NCBI RefSeq assembly: GCF_033153115.1 | Contig: NW_026889779.1 | Coordinates: 25,358,001-25,422,000, forward strand | Length of the DNA stretch: 64,000 bases | Direction: 5' to 3' | From: Saccostrea echinata | Taxonomy: Eukaryota | Shown: one piece after another, positions 7,472 to 19,174 of the stretch | Numbering within the stretch: the first letter of the stretch is position 1 | Layout: the number at the start of each line of letters is the position of its first letter | Notes under the pieces: model-generated | Seen by the model: only the letters and a program-made list of their open reading frames with translations | Told to the model about the DNA's origin: nothing | The model's database searches: none | Translations under genes and position numbers: made by a program

Positions 7472-10400
7472 ATGTCCTTTCCAGATATTCACACTTGTAT
7501 TCAGGTATTGTCCAAACATAGATAACTACCTTTTTAGGCATCGATGTGTTAATTATTTTAGAAATTATTTAATTGACCCGAATTTCCTTTATAATCTCTC
7601 CATATCTTTAATTCTTTATGCAAGAATCAGTCCAGTACAATCAGTACATTTAGCTACGTAGCTTAAATTACCTACCGTAGCTTTATTTACCTACCTCAGG
7701 TAGCTTTATTTAACTATTTCAAAGCAACTTTTCACAATTTTGCTTTTTATTTTAAAAAGACAAAAAGTCGCAAGAAAATGTCTGCTAAAATTTATTCTAG
7801 GTATTATTTAAAAAGCATTCTAAAACAGAGATAGATTTAACATGGCTGCGTTTGAACACTTTTAAGGAAAATATGTATTTCCATTGTTTGAGTAACTGCA
7901 CACCACCTTGTGTGCGATGTAGCGTGGAAAAGTATATGATTTACTTCACATTGTGCTCAAGATCTAGTAAATGAAAGATGCCTACAGATTTCTCAAATCT
8001 GCGAAATAAATTCCTTTAATGATGCTTTATAACTTTAGCTTGGTCAAATAAGGTGTTCCGGTGCATAATTTGTAGGTAAAAAAGACGAAAATTCCTATTT
8101 TAAACTGTCAATTTCAAGGAAGGATTAAGAAAACCAATTATGAATATAGGAGTATTTTGCATATCAGACAAAGGAAATGTATCCAGATTGCCTTCAGTCT
8201 CTCAGAAAATGTTAATTTGTATGTTCTCAGTGTCTTCTTTAAAATACTTTTAAATTGAATATAGGTTTCAGGATTACTTTTCACATGGTTTCAAATTGAA
8301 TTCCACAAAAATATTTTTTTTTTCTACATAATTCTATTAGAGCCGTAAAGTACGGGAAAAAGAAAGTTTAAATTGATTATGATGTCATAATGGATCTAGC
8401 ACCAAAAAGACAGTCTAAAATCATTTACTAGATCTTGACCTTAACCAAAACTGGTTTTCTTTGTTATTTCACTCAAGAAGTAAGGCCAAAAAAAATAATA
8501 GTCTTGTTTCCTGCTACCAGCCTGAAAAAAATAGGGTAGGTAGGTAGGAAAATTATTTTATTTTATATTTTTATTTTATTTTTTTTCCGACAGCATTTTT
8601 TGGATATGAACTAATACAAGATAAAAATTAAACATGTCACAGGTCAATATTGTCTTTTAAAGTTGAATTTCATGTCTTTTTATGCACAACTCAAGTGGTA
8701 TTTTATGAAAGTCCATATTTAAAACAAGAATTTCATGAAATGCTTGTTTTGTGTTAACACAGAAACTGATTTCGGTGACAGAACGATAAAATTCCAGAAA
8801 TTCCCGATTATTTTTCTTCCAAAACTTAAAAAAAACTTTAGGGTCGGGTGCAAAAAAATAGGGTAGGTCGGGTAGCAGGAAACAAGACTTTTATTTTTTT
8901 TGGCCTAACTGTTAGGTCACAAATTAACTGTTGTATATTGCCCCAAAACTTTTAGAACTTTGATTGCAATTGTGCAGAAAAAGACACATCTCCAAGAGTG
9001 ATTTTTTCATGAATTGTTTTCATATGAGTTCAAAGTTGAAAATTGTCACTGCATCAAAGTGCAATTTTCTGCACTTTCTGGGAAAAATGCTAATTTAAGA
9101 AATAAGTTTGATTTAGTAGCTAAATAAAGCTACTTCAGGTAGGTAAATAAAGCTATGTAGGTAATTCAAGCTACATAGCTAAATCTAGTGATTGTACCAG
9201 ACCTGAGAATGTTTCATCTAAAGGTTTCATCATATATTTTAAAAACAAAAAGAAGATTTTGTGTTGCATATGATAATACATCATTTGAGTTCATTAAACA
9301 ATCATGTATCATTAACAAAACACAGCAGTAGACTGCTACTATATATGTGCTAATTTTATATTTTGTGTTATAGTTGACAGCAGAAAATGAAAAACTGAAA
9401 AAGAAATGCTGGAAATTGAAAGTTCAGAAAGACGACATTCAATTAGAACTGTCAAATCTAAAGCAGAAGCTGCAGAGGGAAGAACTGTTAAAGAATTACG
9501 TCACAACAAGAGAGTAAGGGGTTGTTTTTCCCAAAGAATATGTTGAGATTCTGGATTTCTTAAAATAATGATTGGTATTTATTTTTGTTTCCTGCAACCA
9601 CCGCTTGCATTGACAAATAAAAGTAACCCAGTAAACCAAAGCCATATGCCCTAGAACACATAATGGGGTGGAAAATAATTGCCAAGAGCATTTCCAGCTG
9701 CAATGATAGTTGTTTTTTTTTTCTAAATTGAAAAAAGTTTAACAAGTCCCCATAAAAAAGGTAATAACTGCCAAATTTAAAAAACTCTCGTTTTGGTGGT
9801 GGTGAGGGAGAGAGGGTAGCAGCACCAGTTAAGGACTGATTGTTTATTTTCAGTGTTTTGAGGACAGATTATTTCCAAAAACTGCCAGCTCCCCACTCAA
9901 ACCCAACCCTTGAAGGAAATGATGTCTCCTAACGTTACCCTTGTATGCTTGTCCCTCTAACTATTTGAACCACTAGTATGAGATTTTCAAGATTTTTCTT
10001 CTTTTTAATAAAAAATTAAATTTTTTTTTAATCAAGATGGTACATTGGAGTCATTTACAACTCAAGTGTGGAGATGAAGCTCATTTTATAGATAACAAGT
10101 TTCCCATAGGGCTGTGTCAATATATCGAATGTTCAATACGTATCGATATTCAGGAATGTATCGTATTAAAAAAATAACTTCCAATACGTATCGGACAGGC
10201 AGTTTTCCTTATAATTCTGTAAAAAAGTTGGTAATTTCAGTTACCAAAGATTATTTTTAAATGTTTTGAATTAAAACTGGTCAGTAATGAAATAAACATT
10301 AAGGAGATAGACATCTTAAATAGCTATTACAAAATACATAGACAACTATATTTTAAGAGCCATTCTCTGTAATGACTTTAACTTTTATATAGGAACTGTG

Positions 10401-16905: not shown

Positions 16906-19174
16906 TTGTCAGCGCAACTCCTCAGAAACCGCTGCACAGAATTTCGTCAAACTTTGCAGATATTTAGGACACAATGTGTAGATGTGCATACTAGCAGGAA
17001 ATTCCGATTCCTTTATTTTTTCTTGGAATTTCGGCACTTTTCAACTTAGATTTTTGGCCATATCTTGAATATAGAGATGAACAGTTTGTTAGCGCAACTC
17101 TTCATAAACCGCTGCACAGAATTTGGTCAAACTTTGCAGATACTTAGGACACAATGTGTATATGTGCATACTACTAGGAAATTCCGATTCCATTATTTTT
17201 CTGGGAATTTCGGCTCTTTTCAACTCAGATTTTTGGCCATATCTTGAATATAGAGATGAACAGTTTGTCAGCGCAACTCCTCATATACCGCTGCACAGAA
17301 TTTGGTCAGACTTTGCAGATATTTAGGACACAATGTTTTGATGTGCATATTACCAGGAAATTCCGATTCCTTTATTTTTTCTGGGAATTTCGGCACTTTT
17401 CAACATAAATTTTTGGCCATATCTTGAATATAGAGATGAACAGTTTGTCAGCGCAACTCCTCTTAAAACGCTGCACAGAATTTGGTCAAACCTTGCAGAT
17501 ATTTAGTACACAGTGTGTAGATGTGCATATTACCAGGAAATTTTGATTCCATTATTTTTTTTTGGAATTTCGGCACTTTTCAACTTAGATTTTTGGCCAT
17601 ATCTTGAATATAGAGATGAACAGTTTGTCAGTGCAACTCCTCATAAACCGCTGCACAGAATTTGGTCAGACTTTGCAGATATTTAGGACACAATGTTTTG
17701 ATGTGCATATTACCAGGAAATTCCGATTCCTTTATTTTTTCTGGGAATTTTGGCACTTTTCAACATAAATTTTTGGCCATATCTTGAATATAGAGATGAA
17801 CAGTTTGTCAGCGCAACTCCTCTTAAAACGCTGCACAGAATTTGGTCAAACCTTGCAGATATTTAGTACACAGTGTGTAGATGTGCATATTACCAGGAAA
17901 TTTTGATTCCATTATTTTTCTGGGAATTTCGGCACTTTTCAACTCAGATTTTTGGCCATATCTTGAATATAGAGACGAACAGTTTGTTAGTGCAACTCCT
18001 CTTAAACTGTGCAAGGAATTTGGTTAAACTTTGCAGATATTTAGTACACAGTGTGTAGATGTGCATATTACCAGGAAATTCCGATTCCATTATTTTTGCC
18101 TTAAGAGTTTTGCCTATTATTGAAGAAACTTTCCAGCTAGGTAATTAGGAAATCCACTGGAATCAGCTTTAAATTTTGTAATTAAATTTTATGTGAAATA
18201 TTTCATGACCTTAAAAGACCCCTATTGATTTTGAGATCAAAATATTAATGATATAACACACACACACACACACACACCCTCACACACACACAACACACAA
18301 AATCTTGGATAGTTCTCAACCCCAACCCCCACCCCTCTCAAATTGGTGCTTTGCCTTAAATCATTTCATAAGTACACTATATAAAAACAAATTCATATGA
18401 CTACATCATAATTTTGTTTCCATCAATTATTTAAATGTGTAAATTGTCATGTGTTGGACATGGACTTATACTCATTAACAAATCGAAATCACTGAGGAAT
18501 TTAAATAACAGTTTGTCAGCATAACTCCTGCACTGAATTTCCTGAAACTTTGTAGGTATTTCAGACATAATGTATAGATTTGTATATTACCAAGAAATTT
18601 TGATTCCACTATTTATCTAGAAACTTCAGCCCAATTAAATTTGTAACATACAAAGATTTGAATGTCCTTATATGCAAGAAGTTTTGATGTTTTGCAAGTA
18701 ATGCCCCTTTTTGAATAATTATATTGTGTATTTAAAATGTGTTGCATTGTTGAGTTTTGGGGGAGCGTGGGGTATGTGAGCTTGCTCACTTTTTCTTTCA
18801 TTTAAATTTTAACTTAGGTTTATAATAATCTTTGTTTATAGGAATGAAAACAAAATATGAAAAAGTAGTCAAGGAATGTGAAAGAATGAAAAGAGAAAAT
18901 GAGAAACTCAGGACAGAATTGAAGGGACTGGATTTTGTAAGTACATGTAAGCACATAGTCTTTATCCCAGTGTGTACATGACTGACATTGAAACTTATGT
19001 TTGATGCATTTTTTATTTATTTAGGGATTCTTTGAAGAAATAGAGGATCTCAAGTTTGGACTAAAGCAAGCAACAAAACTTAACAAGGAGTATGAGAAGA
19101 CCCTCAGAAAAGTGTGTATTCAGTTTGGTGTACCCTATCCTCATCCTGAGAAATGTTTACAGGACGCTTCTTAG
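7472..19174 (+). CDS. 248-aa coiled-coil protein with CEP290-like C-terminal motif; exons 7472-7504, 9374-9513, 13639-13740, 14763-14853, 16297-16432, 18842-18936, 19025-19174
   Basis: Seven GT-AG exons join in phase (747 nt): MSFPDIHTCIQLTAENEKLKKKCWKL...DSSTQTE...ENEKLRTELKGLDFGFFEEIEDLKFGLKQATKLNKEYEKTLRKVCIQFGVPYPHPEKCLQDAS*. The FFEEIEDLK...GV segment resembles the extreme C-terminus of CEP290. The first exon is least certain; an ETS motif CCGGAAGT lies just upstream at 7397-7404. Confidence 0.8.
7628..9205. mobile_element. Non-autonomous DNA transposon with about 85-bp imperfect TIRs in intron 1 of the CEP290-like gene
   Basis: CAGTCCAGTACAATC...GTAGCTTTATTTA mirrored by TAAATAAAGCTAC...GATTGTACCAGACCTG; AGAAT on both flanks. 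Confidence 0.7.
8484..8905. mobile_element. PIF/Harbinger-like MITE nested in the 7628-9205 element
   Basis: TIRs GGCCAAAAAAAAATAATAGTCTTGTTTCCTGCTACC / GGTAGCAGGAAACAAGACTTTTATTTTTTTTGGCC; TAA on both flanks. A related diverged copy lies at about 31600-32095. Confidence 0.75.
10391..12073. mobile_element. Probable nested non-autonomous element rich in GTT(A/G)CCATGG(C/T)AAC-like palindromes
   Basis: Weak terminal inverted similarity (GCACGCATAGTCTC / GTGACCATGCGTGGC) and about 9 X-box-like motifs inside; boundaries approximate. Confidence 0.5.
13138..13299. repeat. About 160-bp near-perfect inverted repeat (fold-back MITE)
   Basis: TAAGAAATGAATGTAATATTTTT...CATCAATGCGCTACGCGCATTGATG...AAAAATATTACATTCATTTCTTA. 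Confidence 0.85.
14947..15202. mobile_element. EnSpm/CMC-like MITE with internal AACATATGTT palindromic repeats
   Basis: TIRs CACAGGTACAATTGCAA / TTGCAATTTTACCTGTG, TA on both flanks, about 10 perfect or degenerate AACATATGTT copies. Confidence 0.7.
15258..15644. mobile_element. hAT-like MITE (TAGGGATG family), copy 1
   Basis: TAGGGATG...CATCCCTA termini, perfect 8-bp TSD GTATGTAC; homologous to 35487-35885 (inverted) and 38236-38304. Confidence 0.85.
16479..16654. mobile_element. Tc1/mariner/pogo-type MITE
   Basis: TA-CAGTGA...TCACTG-TA termini. Confidence 0.55.
16786..18795 (+). mobile_element. Non-autonomous Helentron-like element (HINE) carrying a ~180-bp tandem array
   Basis: 5' hairpin ATACCCCACGCAACAAGTTGCGGGGGGTAT, (GTCA)n microsatellite, 6-7 tandem 179-180-bp units (16910-18095), 3' GCGTGGGGTAT plus GTGAGCTTGCTCAC hairpin and T-run. 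Confidence 0.8.

Follow-up and report, generated by a model that had tools for sequence, protein, structure and literature searches.

The 64,000 nt stretch of the Saccostrea echinata genome analysed here (RefSeq assembly GCF_033153115.1, contig NW_026889779.1, positions 25,358,001 to 25,422,000, forward strand; hereafter the window) was found to contain a seven-exon gene (window coordinates 7472-19174, + strand) encoding a protein of 248 amino acids (aa) that is not an orthologue of the ciliary protein CEP290 yet shares the module found at its C-terminal end. In sequence comparisons the homology to CEP290 is significant and is confined to the last ~75 residues. The gene and the homology are real, though the likeness is narrower than the name 'mini-CEP290-tail' given to the gene in an earlier note on this DNA, and the family is much older than was supposed there. 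The reading that we favour, with a confidence somewhat short of even, is that the product is a small coiled-coil dimer that is clamped by the dynein light chain LC8 at a TQT motif and presents a CEP290-type tail, probably at the centriole or basal body.

Every exon boundary is AG/GT, the 747 nt coding sequence is free of internal stops, and all 248 residues of the spliced open reading frame (ORF) are identical to a database protein (P0001) labelled 'centrosomal protein of 290 kDa-like' from S. echinata, so that the complete 248-aa ORF described earlier stands. The C-terminal motif quoted in the earlier note is present in this ORF and is interrupted by intron 6. As also stated there, the gene is bounded upstream by PDCD5; the PDCD5-type exons (PF01984) end at a stop near 4867, 2.6 kb 5' of the ATG.

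Four sequencing runs were compared with positions 7150-7700, and two of these (X1 and X2, from one sample; the kind was guessed as RNA, none being recorded as RNA) hold a contig over exon 1. The contigs, 1438 nt from 7415 in X1 and 1111 nt from 7422 in X2, start 50-57 nt upstream of the ATG, at positions that do not mark the true transcription start site, and both leave exon 1 for exon 2 sequence at 7504. No 5' loose end for either contig was present among the loose ends listed. A possible in-frame acceptor lies at 7450/7451, 21 nt before the ATG. Because both contigs read through this site unspliced and contain the in-frame TAA at 7436, upstream of the ATG, and because orthologues across many phyla begin with the same Met motif, the protein very probably starts at this ATG and the exons are very unlikely to be the 3' end of a longer gene, as the stand-alone gene of the earlier note requires. 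If it follows the gene model, the X2 contig would end near 19488, just 3' of the AATAAA at 19449. Runs X4 and X5 do not cover exon 1, which counts neither way. Only the first junction was compared with run contigs; support for junctions 2-6 comes from the database model, which is identical, and from relatives (P0005, P0007) whose assembled runs yield complete ORFs. Close to the start, an H-x-C pair is conserved (of 42 aligned rows, 33 have H7 and 37 have C9), and it is a guess that this pair could form a zinc clasp between two chains.

A BLASTP comparison with lamprey CEP290 (P0172) gave 28/59 identities (47%; E 3e-12) within the last 65 CEP290 residues, the next high-scoring segment pair having an E value of 0.17. 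When a 23-member family profile was searched against 1.84 billion representative proteins, 458 were recovered at E <= 0.001, and the best 150 include long proteins matched at their C-termini; the long matches with a name come from a chytrid, lamprey and sea urchin and are labelled CEP290 or CEP290-domain proteins, and PF16574 is carried by 4 of 9 long proteins tested. A profile of residues 190-240 scored 40-59 bits at the extreme C-terminus of all eight long proteins examined, four of which carry PF16574 (reversed controls <=1.1), and a profile of residues 168-198 scored 9-22 bits just ahead of that match, its best place in seven of the eight (reversed controls <=6). In contrast, a profile of residues 1-167 scored <=10 bits at scattered places in the same eight proteins, no better than reversed coiled-coil controls (up to 5.9), and a tblastn search of the genome's own CEP290 loci with these residues gave no match. 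A profile-profile comparison (hhalign) of the small family with CEP290 gave a probability of 99.5% (E 1.9e-22). The alignment reaches residue 97 at low column confidence, and homology N-terminal of residue 165 was rejected as inseparable from the coiled-coil background. The name given in the earlier note therefore suits the last ~75 residues and does not extend to residues 1-167, which carry conserved motifs of their own; the vertebrate CEP290 terminus that it gave matches manatee and pangolin CEP290 fragments (P0212, P0214). Neither of the two results that the note named as refuting its proposal was obtained.

The shared module, as seen in CEP290 (NPHP6; PF16574, CEP209_CC5), comprises a heptad helix, the motif EL-x-x-(L/F)D-x-x-FF(E/D)E(I/L/V)EDLK(Y/F), a second helix and an FG-hydrophobic tail at the end of the protein. 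AlphaFold2 models of the small protein and of the CEP290 end both show a helix, a break of 3-4 residues, a helix and a short tail. The highest conservation in the small family also falls in this module, with nine columns conserved in at least 90% of 42 rows and the FFEEIEDLK core nearly unchanged. Besides the small family, the only proteins found with the module were CEP290s or likely CEP290 fragments.

The small protein is nevertheless not a CEP290 orthologue because it differs in length, in PF16574 and in the N-terminal regions. CEP290 has ~2,300-2,500 residues, and the 248-aa protein shows neither this length nor the collinearity over about 2,000-2,500 aa expected of a CEP290. In the Pfam results, PF16574 appears neither with P0001 nor in the 25 families shown for 23 members, and it was not detected in the window. 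Neither the N-terminal membrane-/DZIP1-binding region nor the microtubule-binding region of CEP290 has a counterpart in the small protein, as judged by the residue 1-167 profile and tblastn. The second helix carries the signature AL-x-(Q/E)S-x-x-LN-x-x-YE in the small family and NY-x-x-x-V-x-x-N in CEP290, and the last intron lies one codon before the FF motif in the small gene but 11 codons before it in CEP290.

A separate CEP290, which the earlier note asked to have confirmed, is present elsewhere in the genome. A search of the genome with exon 7 returned the exon itself and four weak matches, all four being CEP290-type last exons. The small gene has a single strong copy; PF16574 matches were likewise found at four places, all outside the window. 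A near-full-length CEP290 was located on contig C49 (about 2,180,800-2,207,290), where 19 collinear, stop-free tblastn pieces cover residues 276-2454 of lamprey CEP290 and weaker pieces extend it to the N-terminus. Over 43 aligned residues, the small protein and the CEP290 of this genome are 42% identical. A recent or decaying CEP290 duplicate was considered as its source and rejected, as a clade with the genome's own CEP290 is excluded (AU p 0.0036) and the intron position differs.

Other CEP290 copies were also observed. Two partial tandem duplicates of the CEP290 3' half lie at 2,410,346-2,437,794 and 2,649,709-2,665,385 on C49, with about 90% and 93% DNA identity to the full copy. In each, the matched pieces contain one stop, and 60 kb and 40 kb of upstream sequence showed no 5' exons. 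A second full copy, 97-98% identical and probably a second haplotype, is split over contigs C44 (~21,900-40,500, - strand) and C40 (6,446,801-6,446,923, - strand). In the full copy on C49, A replaces the first E of FFEEIEDLK, which the other last exons keep.

The small protein is predicted to be a helical rod broken by a linker. In the AlphaFold2 model, four helices with heptad hydrophobicity (6-53, 81-149, 160-195 and 199-233) are present, and a pTM of 0.39 leaves their arrangement unsettled. The linker (~54-80) is predicted to be disordered, with no helix and a pLDDT of 51-62 over residues 51-80. Comparisons with known families and folds were uninformative. No Pfam-A family passed the cut-off on P0001, and the 23 members gave only sub-threshold coiled-coil hits (HALZ and the like); a sequence search of the PDB gave 115 weak hits at E <= 1, the best 60 of which are all generic helices; Foldseek gave 0 matches; VIA-align gave a best Z of 6.8 and none >=8, with generic helices over mostly residues 78-157 and other parts barely covered; and ESM Atlas, searched with the whole protein and with the tail, gave low shared-feature counts and no usable lead.

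The linker holds a candidate LC8-binding motif, a feature of which the earlier note made no mention and which appears, from sequence, to be specific to the family. The published LC8 motif is [D/S]-K-X-[T/V/I]-Q-[T/V]-[D/E], described in disordered segments beside coiled coils (PMC3078936), and the linker sequence R-D-S-S-T-Q-T-E agrees with it at 5 of 6 specified positions, including the TQT core. Its setting, a disordered segment flanked by predicted coiled coils, is that of LC8 clients. Among the 171 members with both flanking regions, the pattern [TVIMCS]QT[DES] occurs in the linker of 131 and only twice in 33,577 residues outside it, while shuffled linkers carry it in 2.9 members on average and 8 at most. 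It is also present in three choanoflagellate-side members (P0122, P0111, P0102). Ten of 11 CEP290 sequences or fragments are without the motif, and the eleventh has one chance-like match elsewhere. In 19 shark, turtle, bird or lizard models without the motif, the missing segment corresponds exactly to oyster exon 3, which is 102 nt long and can be skipped in frame.

A possible contact with LC8 was also modelled, using two copies of the genome's own single-exon LC8 (L010, PF01221) with two copies of residues 30-110. The score was 0.46 against a best control of 0.00, with contacts agreeing at >=65% and a partner pLDDT of >=56, which lends the contact weak support; of 78 solved complexes only 5 scored 0.60 or below, as did all four passing mismatches, and solved LC8-peptide complexes exist, so the score may reflect likeness. 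Some centrosomal coiled-coil proteins, LCA5 and OFD1 among them, are reported to be LC8 clients (PMC9481538; 10.1101/2023.09.15.557927). Clients of LC8/DYNLL at the centrosome or cilium (LCA5/lebercilin, OFD1, ANA2, NEK9) resemble the small protein in having a long-conserved TQT-type motif in a disordered segment by coiled coils. However, no sequence homology between them and the small protein was found, LCA5 has two motifs and the small protein one, and binding of the latter is predicted.

Orthologues of ~250 aa were found from choanoflagellates to birds, in a patchy distribution. In molluscs they occur in oysters, mussels, scallops and a gastropod, and among other spiralians in an annelid, a nemertean, Macrostomum and rotifers. 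Deuterostome carriers are five echinoderm classes, sharks and rays, bichirs, lungfish, caecilians, lizards, turtles, a crocodile and many birds, and the remaining ones are the placozoan Trichoplax, the cnidarian Clytia and three choanoflagellates. Every named carrier lineage is flagellated or ciliated. Length and exon layout are strongly conserved from oysters to birds, and the junctions of vertebrate isoform models coincide with oyster introns 1, 2, 3 and 6. Mammals, teleosts, frogs, arthropods and nematodes yielded no named orthologue in these incomplete searches; of 100 hits to a turtle-seeded search, 96 were named and none is from a mammal, teleost or frog, the four unnamed being 79-98% like birds. 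These absences are provisional, as sharks recovered by another search escaped a word-based one and 50% clusters may hide members. Mammal and teleost hits of one search were rejected as family members and are CEP290 tail fragments instead.

The databases hold more than 100 such entries of 160-400 aa (NCBI, UniRef), automatically named 'centrosomal protein of 290 kDa-like', 'CE290 protein' or 'uncharacterized'. These names treat the gene, including the oyster protein itself (P0001), as CEP290 or a CEP290 fragment and give no function. No description of the family was found in the literature searched, supplements and most subscription journals lying outside the search, and six orthologue locus ids matched no paper. 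In birds, three models (P0261, P0262, P0330) fuse the orthologue with metallophosphoesterase 1 (MPPE1) or name it so, suggesting that the two genes are adjacent there.

In a smaller tree (22 named rows, 43 columns) 14 small proteins and 8 CEP290s fall on two sides of a branch with an SH-aLRT of only 83. Over the same 43 columns, the small proteins share 33-44% identity with the genome's own CEP290, and the 13 other family rows share 44-77% with the oyster protein. In a larger tree (59 rows, 78 columns), from which P0111 was left out as it is without the anchor motif, the small and CEP290 labels are clustered (3 changes against 18.4 when shuffled), but CEP290-labelled Chara P0157, P0163 and P0151 are placed among the small proteins and a clean split occurs in 0% of bootstrap trees. 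The family appears to be at least as old as the choanoflagellate-animal ancestor, and a duplication or module transfer, in one direction or the other, probably predates the choanoflagellate-animal split. The earlier proposal of a small paralogue is supported as to the relation to the CEP290 tail, but the family reaches choanoflagellates and is no local paralogue.

In the mechanism that we propose, the 248-aa protein would form a parallel coiled-coil dimer, and LC8 would be likely to clamp or oligomerise this dimer at the TQT motif between the first two coiled coils, as for LCA5 and OFD1. The clamped dimer would then present the CEP290-type helix-break-helix module to CEP290 itself or to a partner of the CEP290 tail; the centriole or basal body is the probable site, and skipping of exon 3 would turn off LC8 binding in vertebrates. 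Large C-terminal fragments of CEP290 are reported to self-associate and to localise to the centriole or transition zone (PMC3063982, PMC10914257); aa 1765-2479 are paracentriolar in zebrafish and human cells (PMC3063982), and in flies a fragment of aa 1385-1978 is tethered to the axoneme by way of Cep131-Cep162 (PMC10914257). Several observations weigh against this mechanism. The published fragments are about 600-715 residues long and their activities are not mapped to the last 75. The consensus K at position -3 of the LC8 motif is replaced by S in the oyster protein, and 40 of the 171 members are without the motif, 19 as exon-skip-like models, one as a near variant and 20 outright (including Clytia P0050 and similar rows). 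The 171 members are non-independent (many are birds or turtles), the pattern was derived from the family itself, and the motif columns are part of the profile by which the members were selected. In the promoter region (6900-7520) a simple pattern scan found no RFX X-box and no FOXJ1-type site, and revealed one ETS-type and one CCAAT site. Finally, as mammals, teleosts and frogs are abundantly ciliated and no member was seen in them, the protein cannot be a core ciliary part there.

The small protein might instead be a natural decoy or regulator of CEP290, its tail pairing with the CEP290 N- or C-terminus to relieve autoinhibition or displacing CEP290 from the Cep162-dependent axonemal site. 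The CEP290 termini are reported, second-hand, to interact with themselves and with each other and to auto-inhibit, with excess C-terminal fragment leading to aberrant cilium formation (PMC3966841), and the almost intact FFEEIEDLK core would suit such a role. However, those results were obtained with fragments of hundreds of residues, two thirds of the small protein is unrelated to CEP290, and the divergence of the second helix, evident in the identities over 43 columns, suits a partner of its own or a homodimer equally, and we regard this role as unlikely. A bolder version, also improbable, makes the family a choanoflagellate-old second carrier of the CEP290 tail, a competitor tuning CEP290 autoinhibition or axoneme grip that LC8 switches by way of a skippable exon and that mammals, teleosts and the standard invertebrate models have lost. 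If true, this loss would explain why the competitor was never studied, and the last 75 residues of CEP290 would be singled out as an independent functional module. It is similarly doubtful that the tail is a general docking or dimerisation unit used in a non-ciliary job, for example in an LC8-linked cytoskeletal, spindle or transport adaptor. LC8 is credited with more than 100 partners in many processes (PMC9481538). The homology to CEP290 is the sole tie of the small protein to cilia, and the fold and atlas searches returned generic coiled coils only, but the module is otherwise confined to CEP290s or their likely fragments and all named carrier lineages have cilia or flagella.

The patchy range, with its apparent losses, together with the conserved length and exon layout would also suit a cell-type-specific structural part of the flagellar base (of sperm or choanocyte-like cells, for instance) that marine invertebrates, sharks and sauropsids retained and that disappeared wherever the structure changed; as the losses come from incomplete searches, this appears distinctly unlikely. 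Least probable by far, and largely refuted, is that the gene is a model artefact, belongs as 3' end to a longer gene or arose as a recent, decaying duplicate of CEP290. The genome does contain partial 3' CEP290 duplicates with stops, an acceptor-like site lies in frame ahead of the ATG and some bird models fuse the gene to MPPE1. However, the contigs pass that site unspliced and carry the in-frame stop, orthologues in other phyla share the starting Met motif, the clade with the genome's own CEP290 is rejected, and intron 6 is placed differently from the last intron of CEP290.

CEP290 is described as the most often mutated ciliopathy gene (PMC7793253). A separate gene has preserved this 75-residue module alone out of CEP290 from before the origin of animals, which suggests that the module can stand by itself as a binding unit, and the protein, being small and likely soluble, offers a handle for structural work and partner searches on the CEP290 tail. 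The family is apparently missing from the usual model species and is present in tractable galliform birds, Lytechinus, Clytia, Macrostomum and Salpingoeca. Its mislabelling in databases as CEP290 or a fragment can distort counts of CEP290 presence and copy number.

Table. Features of the CEP290-tail gene and its immediate neighbours (window coordinates)
Feature	Position	Strand	Description
5' leader	7415..7471	+	In-frame TAA 7436-7438; three short upstream ATGs; X1 contig from 7415, X2 contig from 7422
Exon 1	7472-7504	+	Residues 1-11; conserved P-x-x-H-x-C start; contigs exit at 7504 into exon 2
Exon 2	9374-9513	+	Residues 12-58; predicted coiled coil 1; R57 and part of D58 open the LC8-type motif
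Exon 3	13639-13740	+	Residues 58-92; 102 nt, phase 2-2, skippable in frame; predicted disordered linker
S-S-T-Q-T-E core of LC8-type motif	13640-13657	+	Within exon 3
Exon 4	14763-14853	+	Residues 92-122; first half of predicted coiled coil 2; family-specific conserved block
Exon 5	16297-16432	+	Residues 123-168; second half of predicted coiled coil 2 and variable basic linker
Exon 6	18842-18936	+	Residues 168-199; first helix of CEP290-type C-terminal module
Exon 7	19025-19174	+	Residues 200-248 and stop; FFEEIEDLK motif and second helix of CEP290-type module
Likely polyadenylation signal AATAAA	19449..19454	+	Sole such hexamer within 525 nt 3' of stop
Upstream neighbour, 3' exons of PDCD5-type gene	1408..4867	+	PF01984, E 6.5e-06, just over cut-off; four exons translated
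Downstream neighbour, SLC52 riboflavin-transporter ORF	19624..21087	-	PF06237, E 1.2e-131; tail to tail with the small gene

The SLC52 ORF has 487 codons, possibly with an in-frame intron, and its 3' end lies 450 nt from the stop of the small gene; the longer X1 contig would extend into it. Within intron 5, a tandem array of ~180-bp units (16880-18100) follows a CAGT microsatellite, and long perfect, hairpin-like inverted repeats at 6850-6895 and 13130-13305 are likely remnants of non-autonomous DNA transposons.

Further downstream in the window, on the + strand, a coiled-coil frame of 333 codons, which has a signal-like start and several N-x-S/T sites, is followed by a VWA-domain exon (PF00092), and the two (22300-24478) likely form a single secreted protein. 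A single-exon Ser/Thr kinase (PF00069) at 27182-28195 (+) presumably resembles the testis-specific serine kinases. A photolyase/cryptochrome-type gene (PF00875) with a long N-terminal extension was found at 42441-50273 (+), and R-P-x-T-R-V-H-Y-R-V tandem repeats follow an exon at ~44800-45500.

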